Both the position numbers and the translations under genes were made by a program. Under the pieces are notes generated by a model. That model was given only the letters and a program-made list of their open reading frames with translations, was not told the DNA's origin and made no database searches. A stretch of 64,000 bases of DNA. Source: Candidatus Marinacidobacterales bacterium. Lineage in GTDB: Bacteria > Acidobacteriota > Vicinamibacteria > Marinacidobacterales > SMYC01. The first letter of the stretch is position 1; each line of letters opens with the position of its first letter. Shown here in pieces: positions 3,887 to 53,869 of the stretch. The stretch covers positions 3,743,496-3,807,495 of the forward strand of contig CBDEGF010000004.1 in NCBI GenBank assembly GCA_965237685.1. The letters are read 5' to 3'.

Positions 3887-6240
3887 CTAGCGGGCCGTGC
3901 GGGCGGTGCTCACATCCATCCTCCCCTCACGGTCGATGCGCACGGTGATCGCCCCGTCCCGATCGGTTCGCAGGATTTCGACGGCGCGCGTCCGCAATCG
4001 ATGGAGAACGCGGGGCGACGGCACCCGCCGCCAGCCGCCGGCTCGCGTCGAGACGAGTGCCACCCGTGGCCGAACGGCTTCCAGAAACTGGGGGAGCGTC
4101 GATGTCCGGCTCCCGTGATGTGCGACTTTGAGGACATCGGCGCGCAGGCTTTCGGAATCGGCCAGCATCGCGCGCTCGAGGGACGCTTCGGCATCCGCGG
4201 CAAGCAGCACCGTGACCCCACCGAAGCGCAGACGCAGGACGAGAGAGCGGTCGTTCGACGAAGCACCATCTCGCGCGCCAGCCGCAAGCACTCGAAGCTC
4301 CACTCCCGCCAGGCGAATCACTTCACCTTCCCGGAGACGCCGTATCGGAATCCTGCGCTCGCGCGCCAGGGCCCGAATCCTCCGGTAGGCGGGGCGGTCC
4401 CACGCGGGGCGGCCTTCCCACATCTCTCCGACCGACAGGCTTTCGAAGACGCGCGCGAGCCCTCCGACGTGGTCGTAGTCGCCATGGGTGAGGACCACCG
4501 CGTCCAGCCGCCTGATGCCGTGCTTCAAAAGGAAAGGAACGACCACCCGACGGCCGGCGTCCACGGTCGGTCCACCACCACTCCCTCCATCGACGAGCAG
4601 ACAGCCTTGTCCGAGGTAGCCTGAGCACGATCGCATCGCCGTGACCAACGTCCAGAACCGTCATCTCGAGGAGATCGGAGCGCTTTCCACCGGCAGAGAG
4701 CAGTACCGCGAAGAGCGCGAGGAGACCCGCGGTCGCACCGACGCGCTTGACCCCCGCGGTCACGCGCGCGGCGAGGAGAGTCACGAAGTAGAAGGCACAC
4801 CACCAGAGCCCGGGAGGCGACAGCCGAAGCGAGCCACCCGGAACGCGCACCGCGAGCTCGGAGAGCCAACCGAGCGCGAGAACCTCGGCATGGACCAGCC
4901 AGGCGACGAGCTCTCCCGCGACCGGAATCGTGGCGACGAGGACCAGCAGGAACCCGGTGACGATGGATCGCAGCAGCAAGCGGCATCGCAACGAGACCGG
5001 CCACGAGACCGATGGGGGTCAACCGCTGGAAGTGCCAGAGGAGCAGCGGCACGACTCCGAGCTGGGCCGACGCCGAGACAGCCAGCGGGGCAGCGAGAAA
5101 CGCGAAGGGCCCGAGCCACTCACCGAGGCGGTCTCGCATGGGCCGGAAGAACACGACAATGGATGCTGTTGCAGCGAACGTCAACTGGGCTCCAGCCTCG
5201 TAGAGCGTCGCGGGATTGTGAGCGAGAAGACAGAGGGCCGAGAGGCCGAGCGCGTTGGCGGTCGAGGCATCGATACTCAGGAGGCGGGTGATCACGAGAA
5301 CTGTTCCCATCAGAACCGCCCGCCAGACCGAGGGTCGACCACCGCAGAAGCCGGCATAGAGAGGGAGAACGACGAGCAGCACCGCGAGGGCGTACCGCTC
5401 GTCGCAACCGAGACGCCGCAAGAGGCCGTGGAACAGAAAGGCCAGAATGGCCACGTGCGCACCGCTGATGGCCATGACGTGAAACACGCCAGCGTCCTGA
5501 AAGAGCGCCTCGGTCCTCACGGGAAGTCCGGAGCGATCACCGGTGACGAGCGCCTTCACGACTCCCAGCGTCTCTTCCCGGCCGTCCACGCCGAGCTCCC
5601 GGCCGAGCCGGGATGCGACCCAGATGCGAGCGGGCGAGGTCCAGGCGCTCCAGGTCGCGGTTCTGGTGCGCTCGACGAGCAAGGCGCTCTTGATCGAGCC
5701 GGCCAGCCTGCGGTCGGACCAGGCCGAGCGGCGGTCGCCAGGATTCCGGAAGGACGATACAGGTACGACCCGCGCCCACAGCTCCAGGTGATCCCCGGTG
5801 GCCAGTCCGCGCAGACGCTCCAGGAACTCGCCCACGACACTCAATCGAAGTCGACCCGCGACGTCGATGCGCCTGTCGGGCAAGGCGATGGAATCGACAC
5901 GGAGATCCATCAGAACGCGATCGCGATAGAAGCGAGGCTCGTAGGCGAGGCGGCCCCGCACGAGACGGGGAGACACGAAGCGTCGGGGGCCGAGCTGGTC
6001 GTAGAGCCGCAGTAGCGGGTCCTTGTTGCGGCGATGCTCGATCTCACCGCCGGCGAACCCGAGAGCGCCAAAGGCAAGCAGGAGTGCCACCGAAGCGGAA
6101 CGCAGATGTCGGCGAGCGCAAAACAAAGCCAGCATCAGAGCGAGAGCCGCGACGGCGAGGCCCGCCGCGACGTCACCTCCGCCCGACAGGGAAACCCCGC
6201 ACACGAACGCCAGAGCGAGCACGGCCATCGGCGCCCTCAT
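3887..6240 (-). pseudogene. comEC: DNA internalisation competence protein ComEC/Rec2, split over three frames (frameshifts near 4995 and 4615)
   Basis: ORF 4525..6285 is the N-terminal polytopic Competence domain (GLVTGDRSGLP...VFHVMAISGAHVAILAF). ORF 4323..4991 is the middle, ending at the MBL motif LEMTVLDVGHGDAIVLRLP. ORF 3887..4648 is the metallo-beta-lactamase C-terminus (GQGCLLVDGG...HGDYDHVGGL...KVAHHGS). The 4615 shift lies between DAIVLRL and GQGCLLVDGG. Confidence 0.7.
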
Positions 6241-6349
6241 GGGCACTCCCATCCGGTGGAACGTGAGTTTCCGGCAAGCGTGCATGAAAAGGGAAGGTGT
6301 TGCGAGCTAGATTTGTCCTCCGAACCCGGAAAGGCAAAGGAGGTCAGAG

Positions 6350-6760
6350 ATGAAAGGAAAGAAGCAGGGAAACGCGCTTCCTATGCGTCTGAATCGAGGA
6401 GTTGAGCGTTTCGAGAGATGGCGAGCGACTCGGCAGAAGCGGAGAATCCCGGAAGCAATGTGGAAGGTTGCGGAGGGACTGGCGAGAGAGTTTGGAGTCC
6501 ATCGGACGTCGCGTGCCTTGAGGTTGAACTACGAAGAGCTGAAGAGGCGCTGGTCGGCATCGGCGGAAGGAGAAGGAAAACCGAGCGCCGAGGCGGAAGC
6601 TAGTTCGTTTGTTCCGCTGATGGGGCCTGGGCTGGTGGGCGGAGAAGGAGCGGCGGAGTACAAGGGTGTGGACGGCAAGTGGATGCGTGTGGAGTGGAAG
6701 GGAGCGAGTCCGGATCTGGCGGCGTTGAGCGAGAGCTTTTTCTTCGGGGGTGGGTCGTGA
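6350..6760 (+). CDS. tnpA: IS66 TnpA (orfA)
   Basis: 136 aa, HTH-like, with RBS aaggagg upstream. Typical IS66 orfA size, position, and overlap with tnpB. Confidence 0.75.
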   Translation: MKGKKQGNALPMRLNRGVERFERWRATRQKRRIPEAMWKVAEGLAREFGVHRTSRALRLNYEELKRRWSASAEGEGKPSAEAEASSFVPLMGPGLVGGEGAAEYKGVDGKWMRVEWKGASPDLAALSESFFFGGGS

Positions 6761-7113
6761 TCCAGGTAACGCCGCAGATGCGGATCTTGTTGGCGGTGGG
6801 TGCTGCGGACTTCCGCCGGGGGATCGACGGGTTGGCGCGGATGTGTCGGGAGGAGCTATCACGGGATCCGTTTAGCGGGACGGTGTTCGTGTTCTGCAAT
6901 CGACGACGGACATCGGTGAAACTGCTCGTCTACGACGGCCAAGGATTTTGGTTATGCCAAAAGCGTCTGTCGAAGGGACGTTTCCGTCACTGGCCTGAGG
7001 GAGGAAAGCATCAGAGCCTGGAAGCGCATGAGCTCGGGGTACTGTTGTCGGGGGGTGATCCCGCGGCAGCGAAAGGAGCGCCTCAGTGGCGGCGGGTGGC
7101 GGTGCCGGCGTGA
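6757..7113 (+). CDS. tnpB: IS66 TnpB (Orf2-like)
   Basis: GTG overlapping the tnpA stop (GTGA). MRILLAVGAADFRRGIDGLARMCRE...VFVFCNRRRTSVKLLVYDGQGFWLCQKRLSKGRFRHWP is the IS66 Orf2 signature. Confidence 0.8.
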   Translation: MIQVTPQMRILLAVGAADFRRGIDGLARMCREELSRDPFSGTVFVFCNRRRTSVKLLVYDGQGFWLCQKRLSKGRFRHWPEGGKHQSLEAHELGVLLSGGDPAAAKGAPQWRRVAVPA

Positions 7114-7184
7114 GGGTGAGGGAGAAACGAATCGGGGGTTAAAAGGGTTGCGTTCTAGGGAACGATCCGCTAAGCTGCCGTCTG

Positions 7185-8054
7185 ATGAGTGGGGTTCGGT
7201 ATCGCGGCCGGGAAGTGAGCGAAGCGGATATCGAGTTCATCCGCGAGCTCATCGCCGCCCATCCCAAGGAAAGCCGTCGTGCGCTGTCGTTGAAGCTGTG
7301 CGCGGCGTGGCAATGGGTGCAAGCGAACGGCGCACCGTGCGACGCGATCGCTCGAGGGCTTCTGCTCAGCCTTCACCGCTCGTCTCGAATCGAGCTTCCG
7401 GAGCCGCGGTACCGGTTCTCGAGGCCGTATCACCGCAACAAACCGAGTGTGGTGGAGCTCGACTCGACACCGCTCCGGGCACGTCTGTGCGCGCTTCAGC
7501 CTCTGGAGTTTCGTCAGGTGCGGCGCACGGAACAGGAGGCTGTGTTCAACGGGCTCATCGAGACCCACCACTACCTGGGCTACACGCAGCCGGTGGGGAC
7601 GCACCTGAAGTACCTGGTTTTGAGCCAAGGGCGTCCGGTGGCCTGCGTGTCGTTCTCGTCAGCACCACGCCACTTGGAGGCTCGGGACCGTTTCATCGGG
7701 TGGTCTGCTGAGGCCCGGCGGCGCAACATCCGCTTCATCGCCTATAACCCGCGGTTTTTGATCCTTCCGTGGATCTTCGTTCCACATTTGGCGTCGCACA
7801 TTCTGGGCCGCATGGTGCGAAAGCTTCCGATGGAGTGGGAACAGAGCTACGGCAATCCGGTGTTTTTTGTAGAGACCTTCGTGGACGTGTCTCGGTATCG
7901 AGGGACGTGCTACCGGGCGGCGAACTGGGTTGTTTTGGGCATGACGAAGGGTCTGGGCAAGGACAGCCGGTCGAAGCGTCCGAACCGCTCGCTGAAGCAA
8001 GTGCTGGGCTATCCGCTGACGAAGCGCTTTCGAGAAAAGCTCTCGAGCTATTAG
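7185..8054 (+). CDS. DUF4338-like passenger protein inside the IS66 element
   Basis: 289 aa. The C-terminal motif ETFVDVSRYRGTCYRAANWVVLGMTKGLGKD recalls the DUF4338 family. Sits between tnpB and tnpC, where canonical IS66 has no gene. Confidence 0.5.
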   Translation: MSGVRYRGREVSEADIEFIRELIAAHPKESRRALSLKLCAAWQWVQANGAPCDAIARGLLLSLHRSSRIELPEPRYRFSRPYHRNKPSVVELDSTPLRARLCALQPLEFRQVRRTEQEAVFNGLIETHHYLGYTQPVGTHLKYLVLSQGRPVACVSFSSAPRHLEARDRFIGWSAEARRRNIRFIAYNPRFLILPWIFVPHLASHILGRMVRKLPMEWEQSYGNPVFFVETFVDVSRYRGTCYRAANWVVLGMTKGLGKDSRSKRPNRSLKQVLGYPLTKRFREKLSSY

Positions 8055-8055
8055 A

Positions 8056-9720
8056 ATGCGGACTCCACCAACGATCGAGCTAACGATGGAAGATCTGGAA
8101 ACCCTGCTCAAGCGTGCGAAGGCTTCCTTAGCGGAAGAGGACTACGAGAAGCTGGAGCTTTTGCGCAACGCCTATTTGACGCTGACGGATTTCATCGAAG
8201 ACGACCGGATGACGATTCGGAAACTGCGAGAGATGTTGTTCGGTCGAAGCACGGAAAAGACGAGCAAGGTTGTTGCCGAAGTGGAGGGCGAAACTCCACA
8301 GCTTCGCGGCGGGGAGAGTGGCGGGCCGAGCGAGGGTGACGAGCCAGACAAGAGCACCAAGCGGCGCAAGGCCAAGGGTCATGGTCGCAACGGCGCGGAC
8401 GCCTACCAGGGCGCGGATCGGATCCGTATCGCTCGCGATGAGCTGAAGCACGGGCAGCGGTGCCCGGAGTGCGAGACGGGCAAGGTCTATGCGAAGAAGC
8501 CGAAGGTGCTCGTGCGCATCACCGGCGAGCCTCCTCTGAGAGCGACGCTGTATGAGCTCGAGCGATTCCGATGCAACCTCTGCGGCGAGACCTTCACAGC
8601 GAGCGCCCCTGATGGCGTGGGTGAGGAGAAGTACGATGCCACCTCCGCGGCCATGATTGGACTGCTGAGGTACGGGAGCGGGCTTCCCTTCAATCGCCTG
8701 GAAGGCCTGCAGGGGTCCATGGGCATTCCCCTGCCGGCCTCGACCCAGTGGGATATCTCCACGACGCTGCCATTGAGCTCGAGCCCGTCTTCGAGGAGCT
8801 GATCCGGCAAGCGGCCGCTGGCGATGTGTTCTACAACGATGACACGGGTGTGAAGGTTCTTTCCCTCATGAACGTGCCGCCCGAGCCAGAGGATGGCGTC
8901 GCCGCCGAGCGCACCGGGCTCTTTACCTCAGGGATCGTTTCCACGAAGCAGGGGCGGAGGATCGCGCTTTTCTTCACCGGGCGCAAGCACGCAGGCGAGA
9001 ACCTCAGCCACGTTACTCGCTCAACGGGCTTCGGAGCTCCCTCCGCCGATCCAGATGTGCGATGCGCTTTCACGCAATCTTCCCAAGGAGTTCGAAACCA
9101 TCCTCTCAAACTGCCTTACGCATGGCCGCAGGTACTTCGTGAAGGTTGTGGAGAACTTCCCGCAAGAGTGCCTCTACGTGATTGAGGTGCTTGCCGAAGT
9201 GTACCGAATCGATGCTCTCGCTCGCGAGCGAGGGCTCTCGCCCGAGAAACGATTGCGCTTGCATCAGGCCGAGAGCGAACCGATTCTCAAAGAGCTCAAG
9301 GCTTGGTTCAAGGCGCAGCTTGCCGACAAGAAGGTGGAACCGAACTCAGGTCTTGGCGAGGCCATCCGTTACATGCTCAAACACTGGGACAAGCTCACCC
9401 GATTCCTGAGGGTGCCAGGCGCACCCCTCGACAATAATCTGCGCGAACGCGCATTGAAGAAAGCCATTCTGCATCGGAAGAACTCCCTGTTCTACAAGAC
9501 GAAAAACGGCGCCCGGGTCGGAGACATCTTCCTCAGCTTCATCCACACCGCCGAGCTCAACGGCGTCGATCCCTTCCACTACCTCACCGAGCTCATTCGA
9601 CATCGCGGCGAAATCCACGCGAACCCCGCGGACTGGCTGCCCTGGAACTACCGAGACACACTCGCTCGCGGCTCCAAAAACGAGCAGACGCACGCACGTC
9701 CCAAAGAAATCAGACCCTAA
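8056..9720 (+). pseudogene. tnpC: IS66 TnpC transposase, split over three frames
   Basis: ORF 8056..8802 has the N-terminal zinc finger (CPECETGKVY...FRCNLCGETF). ORF 8748..9185 has the DDE core (FYNDDTGVKVL). ORF 8893..9720 is the C-terminus (NNLRERALKKAILHRKNSLFYKT...). Two frameshifts, near 8760 and 9010. Confidence 0.75.
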
Positions 9721-9742
9721 CGCACGCTTGCCGGAAACTCAC

Positions 9743-12191
9743 GGTCCTCGCGTCTCTCAACCACCCGAACATTGCCGGGATCCATGGGCTCGAGCAGCAC
9801 GACTCAACGCACTTCCTCGTCCTGGAACTCGTTCCCGGAGAGACGCTGGCAGAGCGAATCTCAAGAGGCCCCATACCCGTCGAAGAAACTCTCCAGATCG
9901 CCAGGCAGATCGCCGAGGCCCTGGAGGAGGCCCACGAGAAAGGCATCGTCCATCGGGACCTCAAGCCTGCCAACATCAAACTCACCCCGGACGACAAGGT
10001 CAAGGTCCTGGACTTCGGACTCGCCAAGGCATTCGTTGAGGAGATGCCCGAGGCGGATAGCTCGATGTCTCCCACGCTAACGAGAGATGCGACTCGGATG
10101 GGCGTGATTCTGGGGACGGCGGCGTACATGAGCCCCGAACAGGCGAAGGGAAAGCGGGTCGACAAGCGGACCGACATTTTCGCCTTTGGCGCCGTGCTGT
10201 ACGAGATGTTGACCGGAAAGAAAGCGTTCGCCGGGGAAGACGTCTCGGACGTATTGGCTTCGATCATGAAGCTGGAGCCCGATTGGAAGGCGGTTCCTTC
10301 TGATCTCGATCCGCGGATCCGGAACCTCTTGCGCCGGTGTCTCAGGAAGGATCGCAAGAACCGTCGCCAGTCCATCGGGGACGTCCGTGTGGAGATTCAG
10401 GAAATCGTAGCCGAGCCGAGCGAGTCGCCTGCAGTGTCTCGGCCGGCGGGTCAGCACCGGGAGATCTTCATCGGTGTAGCGGCGCTGATCCTAGGCATGC
10501 TGATCGCCGGCGTCGTTGTCTGGCGTGCGGCCGATCCCGCCGCGCTATCTCCCCTCCGCTTCACGATCACGACATCAGTTGAACTGGCCAGGGCCGGGGG
10601 ACCACTGCTGGCTTTGTCTGCTGACGGCAGGACCCTAGTCTATTCTGCTGTCCAGCGAGGCGCGCGGCAACTCTACTTGCGTCCAAGGGATCAGTTTGAG
10701 GCCTCGCCAATAGCCGGTACGGAAGGCGCGAGGATGCCGTTCCTGTCACCGGACGGACAGTGGATCGGCTTTAGCACGGCCAATGTTCTTAAGAAGGTTC
10801 TGATCGCCGGTGGTACACCCACTACGCTGTGTGCGTGCGGTTCCGGCCGATCAGCCGCTTGGGGACCGGATGACACGTCTTTTTCACTGACGCGTCGTCA
10901 AGGCTGTCAGCCATCTCTGCCGCTGGCGGCACTCCCCAACCAGTGACAACGCTAGAAGACGACGAGAGTCTCCATCGCGGCGTCAACGTTCTCCCGAACG
11001 GGCGTGCGATCCTGTTTGCCGCGCTGTCTGGCGGCGGACGCGAAACAGCCCGAATCGTAGCCCAGTCACTGGACACCGGCGAACGACGAGTGCTTCTCGA
11101 CGGGAGCCACCCACGCTATGCTCCAACAGGTCACCTCCTTTTCGCACGCAGCAACGCCCTGTGGGCCGTCCCCTTCGATGTCGATCGTCTTGCGGTGAGC
11201 GGAGAGCCGATTCCCGTAGTTGAGGGTGTCCGGCAGGAACCGGTCGGGGCGGTTCAGTACGAGATCGCTCAAGATGGCACCCTCGCGTACGCACCAAGCC
11301 TGGAGGACGCGATACCCCAGGATTCGCTCCTGTGGGTTGACCGCGAGGGTGAAGTCACACCCCTGACGGCGGATCAAGGTGTGTATCGAAGCCTGAGCGT
11401 CTCTCCCAATGGGGGAGAGATTGCTCTGCAGATTACAGGCGAGGATGGCAGCGACAACATCTGGCTGCTTGATATTGAGCGCGGTACACTCGTTCCTCAG
11501 ACGACCGGAAACACGCTCAACCGGAATCCGGTGTGGGCACCGGACGGAACCAGGATAGCGCTCAACGCCATGGCCGGACCTGGGGGCTATGACCTTTACT
11601 GGACTGCCCTGAGCGGCGGCGGGCTAGAGAACTTCCTCGAGCGAGACGGTACGCAGAGGCCTTCTTCCTGGTCCCGCGACGGGAGCTTGCTCGCCTTCGA
11701 GCATCTCGCTCCAGAGACGGGGAGCGATGTCTGGATCTTCTCCGTTTGCGGAGGGTACGGCATCGCCGTTCCTTGAGAACCGCGCGGCCGAATCGGGTGC
11801 AGTCTTCTCGCCGGGCGGTCACTGGATGGCCTATGTGTCGGATGATTCGGGTCGGGAAGAGATCTACGTCACATCCTTTCCCAACCCTGGCCGTCGAACA
11901 CGCGTATCCACGGCTGGGGGACACAGGCCACGCTGGGCAGCGAACGGCACGGAATTGTTCTATATGACCGAGAACGACGAAGTCATGGTGGTGTCTATTC
12001 TGACTGCGGAGTCGTTGAGAGTTGGGCAGCCGGAACGTCTTTTTCAACTGCCGGGCTTGGTGGATTACGATGCGCATCCCGATGGCAGGCGGTTCGTGGT
12101 GGTCCAGCGCGGCGCCTCCCCGGAGACCACCCAAATCAACGTTGTCCAGAACTGGTTCGAAGAGCTCAAGCGTCTCGTCCCCACCAACTAG
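9743..12191 (+). pseudogene. Ser/Thr protein kinase (N-terminally truncated at the IS66 right end) fused to a TolB-like beta-propeller; two internal frameshifts
   Basis: From 9735: LASLNHPNIAGIHG...HRDLKPANIKL..DFGLAK...YMSPEQ is a Hanks kinase lacking subdomains I-III. A TM segment and propeller follow in ORFs 10044..10946, 10943..11776 and 11727..12191, with the C-terminus NWFEELKRLVPTN. Confidence 0.65.
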
Positions 12192-25937: not shown

Positions 25938-27370
25938 CCGTCCTGTGCCAAAACTCGGCCCTTTTGAAATAGGCCATAAATCAGCAACTTAGTGTCTGTG
26001 TTTGCGACCGGGCCAAGGGCCGTGGGCTTTACAATCGTCTTAGGCGGGCGGGTCGTCACCATGCAGATGACCACCTAGTCGAGAGCGAATATCGAAGCAT
26101 GTTCCTGAAGCTGTTTCCACGCTACGCCGGTCGAGCCCGCCGAGGGGCTACCGTCGCCGGCGACCATCTACGCGGCACGGCAGTAGTAGTTGAGAATGCC
26201 CCCAAGTCGCTCTCGCGACACGATGGGGCCAGTGTCATTCGCGCTTGCCGGCAGAGGGTGTGAGGAGCTCGTTGCCGAGACCTTGGTGGTTCCGTTCTGT
26301 GTGATAGTGCACTACGTATTCGGTTACCGCTGTGCGCAGGTGTCGCTCACTGAGAGGTACGAAGCGGTCGAGACACTCTCGACGTATGGAGAGAACGAAT
26401 CTTTCCGCATATGCGTTCAGATTCGGACTATTGGCGGGAAGGCGCAGGGGCTTCACGCCTGAATCTCTCAAGAGCCCACGTACCGCCTCGGTGAATAGTG
26501 GGTCCCGGTCGTGGATGAGGTATCGCTTGCCAAGGAGGAAACCATCCCACATGTCAGTGAGGTTTCTTGCCACCTGCTTCATCCACTCCCCGTTGGGGTC
26601 CGACGTTATCCCACCGATGCACACGCAGCGAGTGGCGATATCGATGACAAACAGGACATGGTAGCGGACGAGCCCGAACGGGTTCACAACCTCGACGGTG
26701 AACAGGTCTGTCGCAGCGATGGCGCCCCAATGAGCCTTGATGAAGGTGCTCCACGACATGCTCTTGCCCCGCTCCGGGGCAGGCGCGATACCGTGCTCGG
26801 CGAGGATCCTCTTGATAGTGTTGCGTCCGAGTTCATGTCCTAGGTTCTTGAGTGCGCCTCGCAGGCGCGTATATCCCCACGTCGGGTTCTCCTGCGCCAC
26901 GCGCACAATGAGCTCACGGATGTTCTTCGCCGTCGGAGGTCGGCCTGGACTCCGGTTCTTGCTGCCATCGTACTTGGCTGCGATGAGGCAGCGGTACCAA
27001 CGCAGAAGCGTAGCGGGTGTGGCAACGGACGCAATCTGGGCCAGCGCCTCGCGGCCCAAAGCCTGGGCCTTGACGGCGAGCCTGCGCCGCTCGTCGTCCG
27101 AGAGCCTGAGACGCTTGCCCCGAAGCCCGGCTCGGAGCACACGGTTCTCCTCTTGCTGGTAGTCGATCACATCCTGCTGCTGGCGGTTGACCCAGCCAGC
27201 TAGAACGAGCAGTAGGAATTGCACGTGGTACGTCATCATGGATCTGAAGATAACACCCTCGGGCCAGACGATTGTAAAGCCTACGGCCCTTGGTCCGGTC
27301 GCAAACACAGACACTAAGCTGCTGATTTATGGTCTATTTCAAAAGGGCCGAGTTTTGGCACAGGACGGGG
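25938..27370 (-). mobile_element. IS481-family element, copy 2
   Basis: Same 100-bp ends. Transposase 26235..27314 (359 aa) has a 1-bp C insertion near the 3' end relative to copies 1 and 4 (acaccctctgcc vs acacctctgcc). Confidence 0.75.
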
Positions 27371-27372
27371 TT

Positions 27373-27483
27373 TATGGCACGGGAACTGCTAAGGGGTGGA
27401 GGCGGGAGTAGGCTGCCAGCGGTCGGGTAGAAGCTCGTGGATGCGTTTTTGTGGCCATCCGTCGGCGAGCTTGCGGAGCACGT
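27373..27483 (-). other. 111-bp fragment identical to the 3' end of the IS66 tnpC at 39400-39525, inverted, wedged between the IS481-family end and an IS21 remnant
   Basis: Direct sequence comparison of 27373-27483 with the reverse complement of 39410-39525. Confidence 0.7.
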
Positions 27484-28597
27484 CAGTGAGGTACGGGAAT
27501 CAACCGGACGTACGAAGAGCTGGCGACGCATTACGGTGCGGTTGTGGTCCCGGCTCGGGTGTTCAAGCCGAAAGACAAAGCGAAGGTGGAGTCGGCAGTG
27601 CAGGTGGCGCAGCGCTGGATCCTGGCGGTGCTTCGTCATCGCACGTTCTTCAGCCTGGCGGAACTGAACGAAGCCATCTGGGAGAAGTTAGAGGTCCTGA
27701 ATGCGCGTCCGATGCAGAAGCTCGGTGTGAGTCGGCGGGAGTTGTACGAAAGGCTAGACCGGCCCGTACTGAAACCGCTACCGCAGGAGAGCTACGAGTT
27801 ATCGACGTGGAAGCGGTGCAGAGTGAACATCGACTACCACGTGGAGGTGGAGAACAACTTGTACAGCGTTCCCTATCAGCTCATTCACGAGAAAGTCGAG
27901 GCACGGGTGACGGCCTCGGTGGTGGAGGTCCTGTTCAAGGGAAAGCGCGTCGCGTCGCATCCCCGCAAGAAAGGAAAGGGGCACTACTCCACGAACCCGG
28001 AGCATATGCCACGTTCGCATCGGGAGCACCTGGAGTGGACGCCGTCGCGGCTGCTCCACTGGGCGGAGCAGTCAGGTCGCGCCACGGGAAGGCTGGTTGC
28101 GGGGATTCTAGAGAGTCGGCCTCACCCGGAACAGGGATTTCGCTCTTGCCTGGGAGTCATGCGACTAGGCAGCCGCTGGGGCAGTGAGCGTCTCGAGGCC
28201 GCTTGCGCACGAGCGGAAGCTTTGAGCTCTTACAGCTATCGCACGGTGAAAAACATTCTCTCGGCTGGTCTGGATCGTGTGGTGCTCGAATCGGACGCCG
28301 AAGCGCTGCGCCAAAGGCATCTGACAACGCCGATGCATGAGCGAGCGAGGGACCACAGCGTCGATGCGATAAAAACGGGTGAAACCGCCAAACCCGGGGT
28401 ACCAGACGATGCGGCGCCAAAACGACGCGCGAGAATGCCTCAGGAAGCGTCTTCTCGAGCCAGGCCATACCCCAGCAACCCCCGAAACCAGCCCCACATC
28501 GCCCGGGGTTCGGCCGCGGCAGGTCGCTGCCTACGGGAGCGGGAAGGTCGCTTCGCGTCTTTCCTTACGCCCGCTCCCTCCGGCACCGACCTGCCGC
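27484..28597 (+). mobile_element. internally deleted IS21 copy: istA middle joined at a GCG microhomology to the IS21 right-end region; istA 3' end and all of istB are missing
   Basis: 27484 onward is identical to 40441 onward of the complete IS21. At about 28300, ...[11 protein letters not shown] runs straight into the sequence found after istB in the complete copy (42040...). Continues after the ISKra4-like insertion at 30074..30243. Confidence 0.7.
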
Positions 28598-30073
28598 GGG
28601 CGCAACCTTTTCGTGATCTTGATCATTTTTCTACTAGAAATGTTCTCTTGACATAAAAGGAAAAATGAGGTGTCCTTCACAATCCTAAATAAAGAAAACG
28701 GTCGCAGCTAAGCGGCCGATGGAGGGACACCTCAATGAAAAGCAGTATCACGCGGGAGGAGTTTAGTAAAGAAGTAAGTCGTCTATCCGAGGAGTTCGCG
28801 GAGCAAGTGTGGCAGGCGGTCGTGGAAGCGGAAGCTGATGTCGAACGGTGTGACGAGTGGATGCGGGTCAAGGGCAGCGAATACCTGCGTGAGGTACTGG
28901 GCAAGGCGCTCAGCCAACGCTCGGAACGACTCGGTGTGTCAGGCGCATGCGAATGCGGCGCGTCGATGGAGTTTCGACAACATCGAGCGTTCCGGGTGCA
29001 CACGGTACTGGCGGGTCGGGATGTGGAGCTGAGTGTGGTTTACGCTCAGTGCTGTGAGTGTCGTCAAGGCAAGTATCCGCTGCTGGAAGAGATGCGGGTG
29101 GACCAGGAGGGATTCACGCAAGCCTTACAAGAGTTGTCGCTGTTGGCAGGAGTGATCGAACCCTACCGCTCGGCGGGCGAGCAATTGCTGCGAAAGTTCA
29201 CCGGGGTGGTCGTGAGCTCCGAGAAGATTCAAAGCTTGGTAGGCGCCGATGGGAAAAAGGCGGAGGGTTTTTCGAAAGAGCCTGCGAACGAGGTGGAAGC
29301 TGGAACGGGCAGACGCCATAAGGGACCGCTGTACATAGGGATAGACGGCGGGATGGTATTCGTGGACGGCCGCTGGCAGGAAGTCAAGCTAGGCTGCCTT
29401 TATACCGAGCAAGGGCGTGTGCAGAGCAAGCTCGGACGCGGAGAGTTGACCGAACGACAGGTCGTAGGGGTTCGAGGTAGCCCCGAAGCACTCGGCGAGG
29501 TTTTGTGGCCTCGCTCTTGCTCAATGGGGGCGGAGTCTCGCAAGGTCGTCATCCTGGGTGACGGTGCGCCGTGGATTTGGAATCTTGCGGAGGAGCTGTT
29601 CACCGATCGAGTCGAGATCCTTGATTGGTATCACGCCGACGAGAATATCAGCCCTGTGGCACGGGTGGTTTTCGGCGAAGGCACCGACGAAGCCGCACAG
29701 TGGCGCAAATCGCAACTCGACCGTCTATACGAAGACGCCGTGGATGAGGTGATCGAGGGTTTGCGGTTTCTGAAAAAGCGTCATCGTTCCAAAGACGAAG
29801 AGATCGACAAGCTCACCGGCTACCTCGAGAGAAACGGGCATCGAATGAAATACAGAACGTTTCGACAAAGCGGCTACTACATCGGCAGCGGTGCCGTGGA
29901 AAGTGCCGTGAGCCACGTTATGCAACAAAGGATGAAGCGAGTCGGGATGAGATGGCACGCCGCTGGGGCCGATGCAATGCTCGCACTGCGCTGTGTCTTC
30001 CGAAGCACGGGCGCCTGGGATTCGTTCTGGAACTATCGAAAACAGGTCGCATGAACGGAAGTCGATTGCGCCC
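28598..30073 (+). mobile_element. ISKra4-like (ISNCY-family) IS, 1476 bp, with 10-bp inverted repeats GGGCGCAAYC and 8-bp target duplication CCTGCCGC
   Basis: Target duplication at 28590-28597 and 30074-30081. Left end gggcgcaacc; right end gattgcgccc. Lower GC. Inserted into the IS21 right-end region. Confidence 0.7.
28735..30054 (+). CDS. ISKra4-family transposase
   Basis: 439 aa. ILDWYHADENI and C-terminal GYYIGSGAVESAVSHVMQQRMKRVGMRWHAAGADAMLALRCVFRSTGAWDSFW are hallmarks of ISKra4-group transposases. Confidence 0.7.
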   Translation: MKSSITREEFSKEVSRLSEEFAEQVWQAVVEAEADVERCDEWMRVKGSEYLREVLGKALSQRSERLGVSGACECGASMEFRQHRAFRVHTVLAGRDVELSVVYAQCCECRQGKYPLLEEMRVDQEGFTQALQELSLLAGVIEPYRSAGEQLLRKFTGVVVSSEKIQSLVGADGKKAEGFSKEPANEVEAGTGRRHKGPLYIGIDGGMVFVDGRWQEVKLGCLYTEQGRVQSKLGRGELTERQVVGVRGSPEALGEVLWPRSCSMGAESRKVVILGDGAPWIWNLAEELFTDRVEILDWYHADENISPVARVVFGEGTDEAAQWRKSQLDRLYEDAVDEVIEGLRFLKKRHRSKDEEIDKLTGYLERNGHRMKYRTFRQSGYYIGSGAVESAVSHVMQQRMKRVGMRWHAAGADAMLALRCVFRSTGAWDSFWNYRKQVA

Positions 30074-36578: not shown

Positions 36579-36690
36579 GGACTAGGACTCTACATCGTAA
36601 GCGTCCGCTCCCACCATGTTCCCGATACGTCGCTCCCGAGGCATCCTTTGTGTGCTCGCCACTGGAGGCGGGGGACGAAGGAGGCAAGAG

Positions 36691-37056
36691 ATGTCGAAGC
36701 GAAGGACAGCGGGGATATCGAAAGTGATAGGGAAGCGGCGCTGGGCAGAGGCGGATGCGCGGAATGTTGTGTCGTCATGGCAGCGTAGTGGGAAGCGTGT
36801 CTCGGAGTTCGCCAGGGAGTACGGGTTGACCTCCCAGCGGCTGGTTCGGTGGTCGGAGCGACTGCAAGGCGGGTCGAGGGGGAGTGTACGGTTTCATCCG
36901 GTTCGCCTGGTGGGAGGCGAGCGAGAAGGCGAGCGAGGAGGCGAGAGGGACGCGATCGAGGTGGTGTTGTTGGACGGCAGGCGCGTACGAGTGCGTGAGG
37001 GGTTCTCATCTGAGGAGCTGGGTCGGGTGCTCGAAGTTCTAGAAGGTCGAGCGTGA
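36691..37056 (+). CDS. tnpA: IS66 TnpA (orfA)
   Basis: [61 protein letters not shown] gaaggagg upstream. Confidence 0.75.
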
Positions 37057-37439
37057 TGTGGATGCTCCCATCGTCTGTGAGGATCTACGTTGCGGCGGAG
37101 CCGATGGACCTGCGTCGCGGCTTTGACGGGCTGGCTGCAGCGACGCGGAGTGTGATCGGTCAATCGCCCCTGAGCGGTCATCTGTTCGTGTTTCTGAATC
37201 GGCGTCAGAATCGTGTGAAGATCCTCGCTTGGGATCGGACGGGGTACGTTTTGCTGTACAAGAGGCTGGAGCGAGGGACCTTTGAACTGCCGACGTCACC
37301 GCGTCCGGGTGATAGGCACGTTGAGTTGGACTCTGGCGAGCTGGGACTGATGCTGGAGGGGTTGGACCTTCGTGGCGCTCGACGCCGGAAGCGATGGTAT
37401 CAGCGAGCTGAGGAGAAGAGAGTCGCCCTTCACGGTTGA
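37053..37439 (+). CDS. tnpB: IS66 TnpB (Orf2-like)
   Basis: [69 protein letters not shown]. Overlaps the tnpA stop. Confidence 0.8.
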
Positions 37440-37516
37440 AGGGCTGATTTTCTTCCCAAGAACGCAGCAGGGACTTGACTTTCTTGCTTTTTGCGATTAG
37501 TCTTAATCTTCTATAT

Positions 37517-37837
37517 ATGACTAAGACGCGACTACTGCAACGGCTTCAAACCCTCGGCGAGAACGCTGTACCGGGCACGCTTACGGAGGTCATGCTTCGC
37601 TGTGGTAAAACCGCCTGCGGGTGCCGAACCGACCCGAATCGTCTCCATGGTCCCCACCTGTACCTGAAGTTTCGCAACGAGGAGGGTCGGTCGACATCGC
37701 TGTACATCCCGCGAAGCCACGAACGGGAAGTTCGTCGTGGAGTCGAGGCCTGGTCGAAGATGCGAGAGGCGGTGGCTCAGTTGGGCAATCAGAATCGCAA
37801 GGGGCTAGCGAAACAGCTGCGTCAAAAGCGTAAGTAG
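37517..37837 (+). CDS. small Cys-rich ORF (106 aa; CGKTACGC...HGPHLYLKFRNEEGRSTSLYIP) between tnpB and tnpC
   Basis: ATG at 37517. Its stop overlaps the tnpC GTG by one base (TAGTG). Occupies the same slot as the DUF4338 ORF in the other IS66 copy. Confidence 0.4.
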   Translation: MTKTRLLQRLQTLGENAVPGTLTEVMLRCGKTACGCRTDPNRLHGPHLYLKFRNEEGRSTSLYIPRSHEREVRRGVEAWSKMREAVAQLGNQNRKGLAKQLRQKRK

Positions 37838-39503
37838 TGAACACGAGCTCCGAATCGACCCAGTCGCGCCGAGAGGGCGCTGGCAGTACGAGGGCGCCCA
37901 ACGCTCTGGGGCAGATTCGGGATTCGGCCCGAAGTCTAGCAAGCGAGGGCAAGACGGAGGAAGCGTTCGACCTGCTGGTCTCGGCGCTGGATGCGGTGTT
38001 GCGCAAATCGAGAGAGCTGGAGCTGATGGTGTTGAAGCTTCAGAGGGAACGAGTAGGCAAGCGCTCCGAGAAGGTGGACCCCGGACAGCTCCAGCTGATG
38101 TTCGAGCAGCTGATGAGCCAAAGCGGTGGTGAAGAGCTGGAGTCGGAGCTCGACCCACAAACCGAGGCTCGGGAAGACGCGGAGCTGGAACAGCAGATCG
38201 AAGAAGCGAAAAAGACTCGGCCACGAGGCAAGGGCAACAAACCGCGCCGCGAAACAATCCGAACGGACGGGATCGAACGCCAGGTTCACTTGCGCGAGAT
38301 ACCTGAAGAGGAGCGGGGCTGCTCTCGATGCGGCAAACTCAAGAAGCCTCTCGGTAAAGACGTCCGACGGAGGCTCGAGTACGTGCCGGGGCACTTCATC
38401 GAGCATGAGTACCATCTGGAGAAGTACGCCTGCGGGAAGTGCCGGGAAGGCGTCACGAGAGCCGAGGGCCCGGCCCCGGTGATCGAGCGGAGCAGCGCTG
38501 ACGCCTCGCTTTTAGCTCATGTGGTGGTGAGCAAGTACGTAGACCACGTTCCCCTTCACCGTTTGCATCGTATCTACGCCCGTAGCGGCGCGGGGATTGC
38601 GGTCTCCACGATGTCGGATTGGGTGGGCGAGGTGGCAAACCTTGTGGAGCCGCTTGTGGACCAGTTGGAGAAGCGGGTCCTGAAGGCCGATGTCATCCGA
38701 ACCGATGCCACCGGAGTGAAAGTGCTCGATCCGCAAAGCCCGGAGAACATCGAGCGAGGCACGATGTGGTGCTACATGGGCGACGACCGAGACGTGGTGT
38801 TTCGCTACGCGCCGACGGGCGAAGGAGCGACGGGTCCGTGGGAGTTTTTGGCGGGCCGCACGGGATACGTGCAGGCCGACGCCGCGAGCGTGTTCGATCG
38901 CGTGTTTAACGGCACGGTGGCCTCCGCGGAAGAAGTCGGTGCTGGGCGCATGCACGACGAAGGCTGGTTGCCCTCAAAGACATGGACTGCCGCGTCGCCT
39001 ACCCGCTCAAGCTGATCGCAAGGATGTATCGCATCGAACGCCTGGCCGATGCGAGGGAGCTGTCGGTCGACGAGCGGACGCTACTTCGCAAGGAGCGCTC
39101 GGCGTCGGTACTCGAGAAGCTGAAACGGTGGTTTGTGCTGACGCATCGAAGCGAACCGCCCAGCTCGGACCTTGCCATGGCCACGGGTTACCCACTCAAC
39201 CACTGGACCGCTCTCACTCGCTTCGTCGACGATGGACGCTTAAGCCTTGACAATAATATCTGTGAGCAACAAATGAGGGCCATCGCACTCGGTCGACGCA
39301 ACTATCTCTTCTGCGGTTCTCACGACGCCGCGCGACGCACCGCCGTTCTCTACAGCCTCATGCGCACCTGCGCACAGCACAACGTCCCGCCTCTCCCGTA
39401 CCTCACTGACGTGCTCCGCAAGCTCGCCGACGGATGGCCACAAAAACGCATCCACGAGCTTCTACCCGACCGCTGGCAGCCTACTCCCGCCTCCACCCCA
39501 TAG
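37837..39503 (+). pseudogene. tnpC: IS66 TnpC transposase with a single -1 frameshift near 38960
   Basis: ORF 37837..39015 carries the Zn finger CSRCGK...CGKCREG and DDE core. ORF 38982..39503 carries CWAHARR...NNICEQQMRAIALGRRNYLFCGS. At the junction ggtgctgg reads as if a T is missing from an expected ggttgctgg (EEVG/CWAHAR). Confidence 0.75.
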
Positions 39504-39762
39504 CAGTTCCCGTGCCATAAACCCCCTATTCCGGGGCGAATGCTGCGTATTCCGGGGCATCGTGAACGCAGATTCCAGCCGAAGGTGAACATCCATTCCA
39601 AAGCATCGTGAACACGGATTCCGGGGATCGTGAACATGGATTCCGGGGAAGGTGAACACGGATTCCAGGCAACGTGAACGCCGGTTCCGGCATCGCGAAC
39701 GCTCATCGATAGCACGTTTCAAGGCACTCTAGGTCGTACCCGGAAGGAGGACGATCTAGGAA

Positions 39763-41320
39763 ATGGCAGCTAAGAGGTTATCGATGAGAAAAATACGAGA
39801 GGTTCTAAGGTTAAAGTACGAGCTGGGTTTTACTCACCGCACGATCGCAAAGGCACTTCGCGTGGCGGTTGGAACGGTGAGTGAGTACCTGGCCAAGGCG
39901 AAGAAGGGTGGTCTGAGCTGGCCGCTCCCGGAGGAGCTGAGCGACGGGGAGCTGGAGGCAGGGCTGTTTCCGCCGCCGGGCTCGTCTGGCGCACGGCCGG
40001 GTCTGGACTATGCCCACATCCACGAGGAGCTGAGGCGTCACCGAGAGCTGACGTTGCTGCAGCTGTGGGTGGAGTACGCGGAGAATAAGCCGGGAGCGTA
40101 CGGCTACAGCCGTTATTGCGAGCTGTACGGTCAGTGGAAGAAGAAGCTGAACCCGACGATGCGTCAACGGCATCGAGCAGGCGAGAAGACATTCGTCGAT
40201 TTTTCGGGGGAAGAAGCCTCACATCGTCGATCCGAAAACGGGAGAGCTCGTCGAAATGGAACTGTTCGTCGGGACGTTGGGCGCGAGCAGTTACACCTAC
40301 GTCGAAGCGACACTGAACCAGTCGCTGGAATCGTGGGCGAAGGCCCATAAGGGGATGTCGGATTACTTCGGTGGCAGTACGGAGATCTGGGTTCCGGACA
40401 ACTTGAAGAGCGGCGTGGATTTGGTGGACCGTTACGAGCCAGGGATCAACCGGACGTACGAAGAGCTGGCGACGCATTACGGTGCGGTTGTGGTCCCGGC
40501 TCGGGTGTTCAAGCCGAAAGACAAAGCGAAGGTGGAGTCGGCAGTGCAGGTGGCGCAGCGCTGGATCCTGGCGGTGCTTCGTCATCGCACGTTCTTCAGC
40601 CTGGCGGAACTGAACGAAGCCATCTGGGAGAAGTTAGAGGTCCTGAATGCGCGTCCGATGCAGAAGCTCGGTGTGAGTCGGCGGGAGTTGTACGAAAGGC
40701 TAGACCGGCCCGTACTGAAACCGCTACCGCAGGAGAGCTACGAGTTATCGACGTGGAAGCGGTGCAGAGTGAACATCGACTACCACGTGGAGGTGGAGAA
40801 CAACTTGTACAGCGTTCCCTATCAGCTCATTCACGAGAAAGTCGAGGCACGGGTGACGGCCTCGGTGGTGGAGGTCCTGTTCAAGGGAAAGCGCGTCGCG
40901 TCGCATCCCCGCAAGAAAGGAAAGGGGCACTACTCCACGAACCCGGAGCATATGCCACGTTCGCATCGGGAGCACCTGGAGTGGACGCCGTCGCGGCTGC
41001 TCCACTGGGCGGAGCAGTCAGGTCGCGCCACGGGAAGGCTGGTTGCGGGGATTCTAGAGAGTCGGCCTCACCCGGAGCAGGGATTTCGCTCTTGCCTGGG
41101 AGTCATGCGACTAGGCAGCCGCTGGGGCAGTGAGCGTCTCGAGGCCGCTTGCGCACGAGCGGAAGCTTTGAGCTCTTACAGCTATCGCACGGTGAAAAAC
41201 ATTCTCTCGGCTGGTCTGGATCGTGTGGTGCTCGAATCGGACGCCGAAGCGAAACCGCGAGAGGAGCACGAGAACATCCGAGGCGCGGATCACTACGAAG
41301 GAGGAGAGTCCCGATGCTGA
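39763..41320 (+). pseudogene. istA: IS21 IstA transposase, +1 frameshift in a G-run at about 40213
   Basis: ORF 39763..40350 is the HTH N-terminus. ORF 40256..41320 is the DDE core. tcgggggaagaag has one G too many relative to the frame that restores the DDE-core frame (...FSGKKPHIVDPKTGELVEMELFVGTLG). Confidence 0.75.
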
Positions 41321-42072
41321 CACCCGGAACGATAGAAAAGATGAACGCCATGAAGTTGTTCGGCTTGGTGTCCGCGTTCGAAACCCAGTTGAGCTCGAGC
41401 GAATACAAGGAGCTGAGCTTCGAGGAACGTGTGGGACTCCTGGTCGATGCCGAGTGGACCGCCCGCGAACAGCGTAAGCTTTCTCGACGACTGCGAGCGG
41501 CAAAGCTCCGCTATCCGGCATGTTTGGAGAACGTGAACTTCCAAGCGCCTCGAGGCTTAAACCGCGAACAGATCTTGAGCCTGGGCAACTGCCGCTTTGT
41601 CGGTGAGCGCCATAACCTGCTCATCACCGGCCCGACGGGGATTGGCAAATCGTTCTTGGCTTGCGCCTTCGTGGAGCGGGCCTGTCGTCGCCGCTTCACC
41701 GGATGCTACGTGCGAGCACCGCGCTTGCTCCACGAGCTCGCGGTCGCTCGTGGTGATGGTTCCTACGCCCGGCTTTTGACGAAACTCGCCAAGCTGGACT
41801 TACTGGCTATCGATGATTGGCTGCTTCACCCGCTGAAAGAATCGGAGAGACGGGATCTAATGGAGGTCATCGAAGACCGCGCCGAGCGTGGCTCCACACT
41901 CATCGCGACCCAGATTCCGCTCAAGCAGTGGCACGAAGCGATTGGCGACCCAAACCAGGCAGACGCTATCTGCGATCGCATTCTCCACAGCGCGCACCGC
42001 ATCACTCTCAAAGGAGCTTCTCTGAGAAAGACCAAGGCTGCGCCAAAGGCATCTGACAACGCCGATGCATGA
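41314..42072 (+). CDS. istB: IS21 IstB ATP-binding helper
   Basis: ATGCTGA overlap with the istA stop. Walker A LLITGPTGIGKSFLACA, Walker B DLLAIDDW. Confidence 0.85.
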   Translation: MLTPGTIEKMNAMKLFGLVSAFETQLSSSEYKELSFEERVGLLVDAEWTAREQRKLSRRLRAAKLRYPACLENVNFQAPRGLNREQILSLGNCRFVGERHNLLITGPTGIGKSFLACAFVERACRRRFTGCYVRAPRLLHELAVARGDGSYARLLTKLAKLDLLAIDDWLLHPLKESERRDLMEVIEDRAERGSTLIATQIPLKQWHEAIGDPNQADAICDRILHSAHRITLKGASLRKTKAAPKASDNADA

Positions 42073-53774: not shown

Positions 53775-53869
53775 GGAGAGGTGCTGGAGTGGCTGATCAG
53801 GGCTGCCTGCTAAGCAGTTACACGGGTGATGAGCTTGTGTCGAGGGTTCGAATCCCTCCCTCTCCGCCA
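53775..53869 (+). tRNA. tRNA-Ser (anticodon GCT), type II with long variable arm
   Basis: Acceptor GGAGAGG/CCTCTCC. Anticodon arm GCTGC-CTGCTAA-GCAGT with U33 and GCT at 34-36. Long variable arm. T-arm GAGGG-TTCGAAT-CCCTC. Discriminator G plus encoded CCA (53867-53869). Folded by eye. Confidence 0.75.

Follow-up and report, generated by a model that had tools for sequence, protein, structure and literature searches.

The locus described here raises the question of whether genes that an insertion sequence (IS) carries in addition to its usual transposition genes are random cargo or belong to the element. The canonical gene order of the IS66 family is tnpA-tnpB-tnpC, as in IS66 and IS679, and the ISBst12 group lacks tnpA and tnpB. 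The window, by which we mean the whole 64,000-nucleotide (nt) stretch of DNA from a Candidatus Marinacidobacterales bacterium that was analysed, contains two IS66-family elements, called IS#1 and IS#2 here (Table 1). An earlier reading of this DNA from the letters alone (the sequence-only reading) had noticed an extra open reading frame (ORF) between tnpB and tnpC in each element, and had proposed that these ORFs provide a conserved accessory function rather than being random cargo. The ORFs and Pfam matches confirmed the presence of an extra gene at this position in both elements, and the best reading of the data is that the two genes are integral, selected components of two IS66 subgroups and not passengers.

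The extra ORF of IS#1 had been described as DUF4338-like, and a hidden Markov model (HMM) search bore this out with a match to PF14236 of 102.8 bits over positions 48-222 of the 297-position profile. The extra ORF of IS#2 is a member of a different family, DUF6788 (PF20586). The two elements had been thought to be unrelated, which did not hold: their TnpB proteins are 39-41% identical, and IS#1 and IS#2 are different subgroups of one family.

Homologues of the DUF4338 protein are abundant. There were more than 8000 in a protein database clustered at 90% identity, the homologue at rank 120 was still 64-67% identical, and most were located on contigs of 3-4.5 kb, which is approximately the size of an IS; an exhaustive search of the cluster representatives gave 8101 at E ≤ 1e-3 and 757 at E ≤ 1e-30. 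A genome scan using one genome per species yielded at least 591 confirmed relatives, and the best 80 loci were taken for an evaluation of gene context. These 80 loci are spread over at least six phyla (Acidobacteriota, Planctomycetota, Myxococcota, Desulfobacterota, Pseudomonadota, Bacillota and Kiritimatiellia), the closest being in a Candidatus Marinacidobacterales metagenome-assembled genome (MAG), with 91% identity. It was found that tnpB was present just upstream and/or tnpC just downstream of the DUF4338 gene in about 76 of the 80, and that all four genes were full length in 50. The four-gene order was also obtained each time in five individual look-ups of DUF4338 or DUF6788 relatives.

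Co-mobility of the four genes was seen in sister copies within single MAGs, which were 97.7-100% identical over 3.7-4.7 kb and had GTGAGTTTTCGGCAAGCGTGC-type terminal repeats. Each sister copy was flanked by its own 8-bp duplication (AGACCAAC, GGAACTCC, CCGCCGCC, GAACGGCG, GTTTCAGC or CCAGGTCC), and therefore the four-gene unit transposes as a whole, with the duplication that is a hallmark of IS66. Protein conservation was compared across the 50 complete elements, relative to a reference element, and the DUF4338 protein was the most conserved of the four in 43 of them. The median identities were 64.5% for DUF4338, 60.7% for TnpB, 52.9% for TnpC and 32.5% for TnpA. One such element is carried by a cultured organism, Edaphobacter aggregans DSM 19364 (L072), which gives experimental access to it.

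Two further observations were made on these copies. Several DUF4338-bearing IS66 copies (L039/L040, L050/L052, L084/L087 and L064/L092) are 4.4-5.5 kb in length, relative to the usual 3.7 kb, and therefore carry extra DNA, probably after tnpC. At two loci (L001 and L016), the DUF4338 gene is intact (100 and 91% identical to the window ORF, respectively) and tnpC is truncated or missing, and therefore the accessory ORF outlives the transposase gene in decaying copies.

The context of DUF6788 was evaluated in a metagenome scan, and nearly all relatives of at least 50% identity had the arrangement tnpA-tnpB-DUF6788-tnpC. The same order was found in three protein look-ups (53-73% identity), in which TnpC was intact, with a length of 543-559 amino acids (aa). 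One DUF6788 element (L100) is flanked by an 8-bp duplication, CTGCGCTG. The conservation of the DUF6788 protein is approximately that of TnpC (65.8 and 67.6%, respectively).

The same two proteins were found beside transposases of other families. Eight of the best 150 DUF4338 representatives are long proteins, and seven of the eight are fusions to transposases (Table 1); the families were named by Pfam and NCBIfam, with the IS701, IS4, ISAs1 and IS66 matches above the curated cutoffs. Standalone DUF4338 genes of 35-37% identity were located directly after an IS66 transposase gene in elements without tnpA and tnpB (L181, L182 and L184), and directly before a Tn5-like IS4 transposase gene with a 4-nt overlap (L180). 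The fixed slot proposed by the sequence-only reading is thus not universal, in that those distant DUF4338 genes follow the IS66 transposase gene. As for DUF6788, about 43 relatives of 34-44% identity had no IS66 genes alongside, and in those that were examined the DUF6788 gene was directly upstream of a gene for a 470-520-aa, IS5-like transposase matching NF033593 ('ISNCY family transposase', E 1e-137). The PF20586 match of one such ISNCY-linked relative (L134) was 68.8 bits, and the DUF6788 gene in the ISNCY-type element is about 190 nt inside 23-nt inverted repeats (CTAGCTACTTTCCGGCGCAAAAA). These proteins look like portable transposase companions. The idea of a conserved accessory function is supported by the IS66 homologues and by co-transposition, and the presence of both proteins beside transposases of other families strengthens it beyond what had been proposed from the letters alone.

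Other observations on these genes concern a plasmid and the repeats. A region of the Thiodictyon plasmid pTs485 (L096, 4339-10324) contains a standalone DUF4338 gene, a tyrosine integrase gene and IS91 and IS4 transposase genes; this cluster sits inside a split DUF2235 gene and is a further mobile context for the DUF4338 domain. The ISNCY-type repeat (L141, L143 and L163) and the DUF4338-IS66 repeat GTGAGTTTCCGGCAAGCG (compared at 6263-6283 of the window) have the octamer TTTCCGGC in common, probably by chance.

The sequence-only reading had drawn attention to a TAGTG overlap of the DUF6788 stop codon and the tnpC GTG start codon in IS#2, which we confirmed; in IS#1 there is 1 nt between the DUF4338 stop codon and the tnpC ATG. 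The stop codon of the extra gene thus abuts or overlaps the start of tnpC, which would lead to joint synthesis of the two proteins. Upstream of the DUF4338 start codon, the sequence TTGCGTTC was found at a distance of 35-41 nt in 75 of the 80 loci, compared to 24 other occurrences in 1.22 Mb, and was followed 17 nt on by a (C/T)A(C/T)(A/G)CT hexamer ending about 8 nt before the ATG. All of the 23 DUF6788 spacers that were inspected contained a TTG-type −35-like hexamer (mostly CTTGAC), 17 nt and a TAnnnT-type −10-like hexamer, and the same promoter-like motif is present upstream of DUF6788 in the ISNCY-type elements. We use TTGCGTTCC as the label for the DUF4338 promoter-like region and CTTGAC for that of DUF6788. 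In IS#2, the motif is preceded by a hairpin and T tract at the end of tnpB, which by its sequence looks like a terminator or attenuator, and relatives in the DUF6788 subgroup have hairpins of different sequence at the same place. These sequence patterns suggest that the accessory gene and tnpC share a transcript whose leader is very short.

We used AlphaFold2 to predict the structures of the two proteins. The model of the DUF4338 protein (predicted local distance difference test score, pLDDT, 81) has an N-terminal helical domain (residues 1-65) resembling a helix-turn-helix (HTH), a disordered linker and a GNAT-fold domain (residues ~97-289), and the nearest solved structure is that of the phage Mu protein Mom. 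Mom is a Gly-tRNA-dependent aminoacyltransferase that acts on adenine in double-stranded DNA, and H58, Y59, R111, S124, D149, R151 and Y159 have been implicated in its active site, of which R111, S124 and R151 were found to be indispensable and the remaining ones to matter for activity (PMC13219725). The comparison was made with hhalign, using a closer, low-diversity DUF4338 alignment (A1), a diverse one (A4) and a Mom-family alignment (A3); in a simple pairwise alignment, the C-terminal motifs were wrongly placed. The A1 alignment gave weak hits to a single Mom sequence or to the Mom family; A4 improved the coverage, not the E-value, and its comparison with A3 gave E 0.0034 over 157 columns. 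In this alignment, H129/Y130 of the DUF4338 protein are paired with H58/Y59 of Mom, S204 with S124, D234 with D149 and Y243 with Y159, and the C-terminal strand and helix are also aligned. Residues H129, S204 and Y243 are at least 90% conserved in A4, among proteins that are only 35-45% identical overall; Y130 and D234 reach this level only in A1 and are the consensus residues in A4. One DUF4338 relative had a weak match to the Pfam Mom HMM (PF25680, E 0.0078).

The model of the DUF6788 protein (pLDDT 92) places a three-stranded sheet between an N-terminal helix and a basic C-terminal helix of 40 residues. Within the sheet there is a CCCH zinc knuckle with the invariant motif C-x4-C-x-C-x7-HGPH (residues C29, C34, C36, H44, G45, P46 and H47). 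A PDB sequence search found no match for either the DUF4338 or the DUF6788 protein.

Taking the genetic and structural data together, we consider it probable that DUF4338 and DUF6788 are element-encoded, DNA-directed partners of the transposase. A partner role is favoured over passenger genes because of the cross-family fusions, the constant adjacency and coupling to the transposase gene and a conservation above that of the transposase. In the mechanism that we propose, the extra gene and tnpC would be a module of their own, with a promoter-like motif just ahead of the extra gene, and the two products would be made together. The DUF4338 protein would most likely engage DNA jointly with the transposase. 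As its Mom-like fold and the retained catalytic residues suggest, it may be a nucleic-acid-directed acyl- or aminoacyl-transferase that marks the transposon-end or target DNA or, alternatively, a DNA-binding derivative of such a transferase, and under either option the site or the timing of transposase action would be under its control. The DUF6788 protein, with its zinc knuckle and basic helix, would most likely be a small nucleic-acid-binding adaptor or regulator of its transposase. The sequence-only reading had thought of a targeting factor or regulator, which either protein may be. The data show that the genes belong to the elements and move with them, and they show the conservation, the gene couplings, the fusions and the fold; promoter activity, catalysis, the substrate and an effect on transposition are inferred.

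Several points weigh against a DNA-directed partner role or against the resemblance to Mom. The context counts come from the best-scoring 80 loci per scan, which are not a random sample of the whole Pfam families, and among the 80 DUF4338 loci there were a few (L031, L049 and L062) without IS66 genes nearby. A scan for sigma-70 consensus promoters did not flag the conserved motifs, which are weak matches to the consensus. The hhalign probability for the DUF4338 and Mom families was low (9.6%), the window DUF4338 protein had no match to PF25680, and R190 and R237, which are plausible equivalents of R111 and R151, were not cleanly aligned. The essential HTH-like insertion of Mom (residues ~175-209) is absent from the DUF4338 protein, which has a short T-G-RG loop at the aligned place. 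The substrates of GNAT proteins are very diverse, and therefore the DUF4338 protein could act on another protein, on tRNA or on a small molecule instead of DNA. As for DUF6788, no solved structure was significantly similar to the model.

A bolder version of the partner role, which we regard as speculative and unlikely to be right in all of its parts, is that a Mom-like DUF4338 transferase has been recruited repeatedly as an obligate partner by IS66, IS701, IS4, ISAs1 and perhaps IS630 transposases, that a chemical mark on the end or target DNA gates transposition, that DruA is a relative of this transposon protein and that DUF6788 is a second, unrelated portable zinc adaptor or regulator for IS66 and ISNCY elements. 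If this were true, Druantia type I would involve DNA hypermodification of the Mom type.

Other explanations of the extra genes were weighed against the same data. The genes could be cargo that helps the element or host to persist, as a Mom-like anti-restriction function or a GNAT toxin in an addiction system, with no role in transposition. Mom, the closest solved structure, modifies DNA as a defence against restriction, some GNAT proteins are toxins that acetylate charged tRNA, and the DUF4338 ORF is intact and 100% identical in copies with a dead or truncated tnpC. It is, however, hard to explain as cargo the repeated in-frame fusions to transposases of four or five families, and both genes always adjoin a transposase gene to which they are translationally coupled, there is no antitoxin-like partner and DUF4338 is conserved above the transposase across phyla, such that we consider the cargo explanation to be unlikely. 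The extra proteins might instead be pure expression regulators that take no part in DNA transactions, either autorepressors at the internal promoter or translational activators comparable to Com, the gene for which in phage Mu is directly upstream of mom and overlaps it. A strongly conserved motif immediately before each accessory gene would fit such a role, and binding to nucleic acids is typical of both the zinc knuckle and the N-terminal helical domain; a repressor would have no need of a GNAT domain of 190 residues in which catalytic-type residues are conserved, and a trans-acting repressor does not predict fusion of the whole module to transposases. Pure regulation appears to us to be distinctly unlikely.

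The other two explanations concern the origin of the ORFs. Because PF14236 is named after DruA and matches the ORF of IS#1 so well, this ORF might be a remnant or mobilised component of Druantia type I captured by the IS. Yet no druB-E genes or helicase operon were found in about 90 DUF4338 contexts, the PADLOC library (taken to include DruA models) contained no family matching the DUF4338 protein at E ≤ 0.01, and the Pfam match is partial, which makes this origin very improbable. DruA is not mentioned in the YprA helicase preprint. High-GC DNA gives many spurious ORFs, and the extra ORFs could in principle be chance ORFs or independent nested insertions, for which one would look for an absence of IS66 homologues or for IS ends belonging to the ORFs themselves. 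Neither was found, because IS66 homologues are abundant and no inverted repeats flank either ORF; the thousands of homologues that are intact and match Pfam models strongly and the confident structure models likewise leave this explanation with next to no probability. A Druantia remnant, a nested independent insertion and a chance ORF were all rejected on this evidence.

The two copies in the window are themselves decayed. As had been noted, both tnpC genes are frameshifted, twice in IS#1 and once in IS#2, and because of these frameshifts both match PF03050 and NF033517 as fragments. In IS#1, translation shows that tnpC runs in frame 1 from 8056 to ~8790, in frame 3 at ~8766-9030 and then again in frame 1; the frame-3 stretch corresponds to TnpC residues 257-352, and the two frameshifts compensate each other. 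The perfect 21-nt inverted repeats attributed to IS#1 were verified, and they can be lengthened to 26 nt if one mismatch is allowed. The tnpA-like ORF matched no Pfam or NCBIfam model and is assigned as TnpA by positional homology only, and the true start of tnpB is probably near 6754-6757, overlapping the tnpA stop codon. There is no target-site duplication, the flanks being ggtggaac (6255-6262) and ggtcctcg. To the right of the element, a Ser/Thr kinase frame (LASLNHPNIAGI...HRDLKPANI...DFG, 9743-10946) opens exactly at the IS boundary and lacks its N terminus, and to the left (4525-6285) is the start of comEC. Because of the missing duplication, the kinase without an N terminus and the comEC start on the left, we interpret IS#1 as lying at a rearrangement or deletion junction. 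With its two tnpC frameshifts, this copy is dead.

IS#2 begins with GTAAGCG at the left end that the sequence-only reading had placed correctly; the right end that it gave is not that of a complete element. The 90% likeness to the intact relatives L098 and L100 ends at 39532-39538, about 30 bp short of their ...GGACGCTTAC end, and the last ~30 bp of IS#2, including the right inverted repeat, are lost. With this loss and the frameshift in tnpC, IS#2 is also a dead copy. The homology of its tnpA product begins near residue 39. The truncation is credited to an IS21-like element that follows directly, at the left end of which a 22-nt repeat (GTGAACAYGGATTCCGG..., 39549-39690) is present in five to seven copies and which has an istA gene split by a frameshift (39763-40350 and 40256-41320) and istB (41149-42072).

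Elsewhere in the window there is a second cluster of IS debris (26235-28656), comprising an rve_3/HTH_21 transposase gene (26235-27314, − strand), a 29-aa remnant of an IS66 TnpC C terminus (27413-27499, − strand) and an IstA-like C-terminal fragment (27544-28656). Rfam and ARAGORN matched nothing in the window but a tRNA-Ser (GCT) gene at 53775-53869, and gave nothing that bears on the two elements.

Table 1. Features of IS#1, IS#2 and the adjoining element in the window, and fusion proteins that contain the DUF4338 domain. Cutoffs: NF033819, 50 bits; NF047593, 28 bits; PF20586 gathering score, 27.2 bits.
Feature	Position or protein	Strand	Evidence or remark
IS#1, four-gene IS66-family element tnpA-tnpB-DUF4338-tnpC	6263..9742	+	inverted repeats, gene content
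IS#1 left terminal inverted repeat, GTGAGTTTCCGGCAAGCGTGC	6263..6283	+	end type also in active relatives
IS#1 tnpA-like ORF, 136 aa	6350..6760	+	positional homologue in most relatives, 27-52% identity
IS#1 tnpB (IS66 Orf2-like), longest ORF	6679..7113	+	PF05717 E 2e-30; NF033819 98 bits
Promoter-like motif before DUF4338, TTGCGT-N17-TAAGCT	7148..7176	+	ends 8 nt before ATG
IS#1 DUF4338/'DruA'-family gene, 289 aa	7185..8054	+	PF14236 (DruA, formerly DUF4338) E 2.5e-29
IS#1 tnpC pseudogene, IS66 DDE transposase, two frameshifts	8056..9720	+	PF03050, NF033517 fragment matches
IS#1 right terminal inverted repeat	9722..9742	+	
IS#2, four-gene IS66-family element tnpA-tnpB-DUF6788-tnpC, right inverted repeat lost	36597..39535 (right end approximate)	+	90% nucleotide identity to intact L098, L100
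IS#2 tnpA, longest ORF	36616..37056	+	NF047593 30.4 bits; NF047595 E 5.5e-13
IS#2 tnpB	37053..37439	+	PF05717 E 2.4e-33; NF033819 101 bits
GC-rich hairpin across the IS#2 tnpB stop (37425-37444), then T tract	37425..37454	+	
Promoter-like motif before DUF6788, TTGACT-N17-TAGTCT	37475..37503	+	conserved in spacers
IS#2 DUF6788 gene, 106 aa	37517..37837	+	PF20586 62.2 bits
IS#2 tnpC pseudogene, one frameshift near 38940	37837..39503	+	start overlaps DUF6788 stop
IS21-like element directly after IS#2	39536..42072	+	repeats, frameshifted istA, istB
DUF4338 + IS701 transposase fusion	P0362, P0458		NF033540, 331-360 bits
DUF4338 + IS4 transposase fusion	P0460		
DUF4338 + ISAs1 transposase fusion	P0455, P0461, also a Thiodictyon plasmid gene		
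IS66 transposase + DUF4338 fusion	P0428		
DUF4338 + IS630-type N terminus fusion	P0427		below curated cutoff, weak hint

The IS66 family is large and mechanistically poorly understood, including the roles of TnpA and TnpB. The results presented here describe very abundant IS66 subgroups that have a fourth gene conserved above the transposase, and two modules that recur with unrelated transposases, which suggests that transposase partner proteins of this kind form a class not recognised before. NCBIfam has models for the IS66 TnpA, TnpB and TnpC proteins and none that matched either extra protein, and the searchable literature contained no paper tying DUF4338 or DUF6788 to ISs, although curated examples may exist in ISfinder. 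The Mom-like fold of DUF4338 suggests a lead toward an enzyme that possibly acts on DNA. There is also a consequence for annotation, in that PF14236 matches labelled 'Druantia protein DruA' are often IS genes and can inflate counts of defence systems, and the findings suggest a possible role for DruA in Druantia type I.

In comparison to canonical IS66 elements, the elements described here have the same TnpC (PF03050/NF033517), TnpB (PF05717) and small TnpA, inverted repeats (of the GTAAGCG type in IS#2) and, in intact relatives, 8-bp duplications, and they differ in that a conserved fourth gene, preceded by a promoter-like motif of its own, lies between tnpB and tnpC. In the distant relatives, tnpC is followed by DUF4338, with no tnpA or tnpB. 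The DruA protein of Druantia type I and the DUF4338 ORF are in the same Pfam family, PF14236, whereas the neighbours of DruA are druB-E and those of the DUF4338 ORF, here and in most relatives, are tnpB and tnpC. The DUF4338 protein is like Mom in its GNAT fold and aligned motifs, and unlike Mom in being outside the Mom Pfam family and in having an N-terminal helical domain in place of the HTH-like insertion; Mom is encoded in phage late operons, whereas DUF4338 is encoded in ISs. DUF6788 has no detectable similarity to Com, the zinc-finger translational activator of Mu encoded upstream of mom. The IstB protein of IS21, TnsC of Tn7 and TnpB of IS66 are helper proteins, and IS10 and IS50 are controlled by host Dam methylation. 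By analogy with these systems, in which a second protein or a DNA mark steers the target or timing of a DDE transposase, DUF4338 and DUF6788 might have a comparable function. They have no sequence or fold relation to IstB, TnsC or TnpB, and here the helper would be of the GNAT or zinc-knuckle type and the mark would be written by the element itself.

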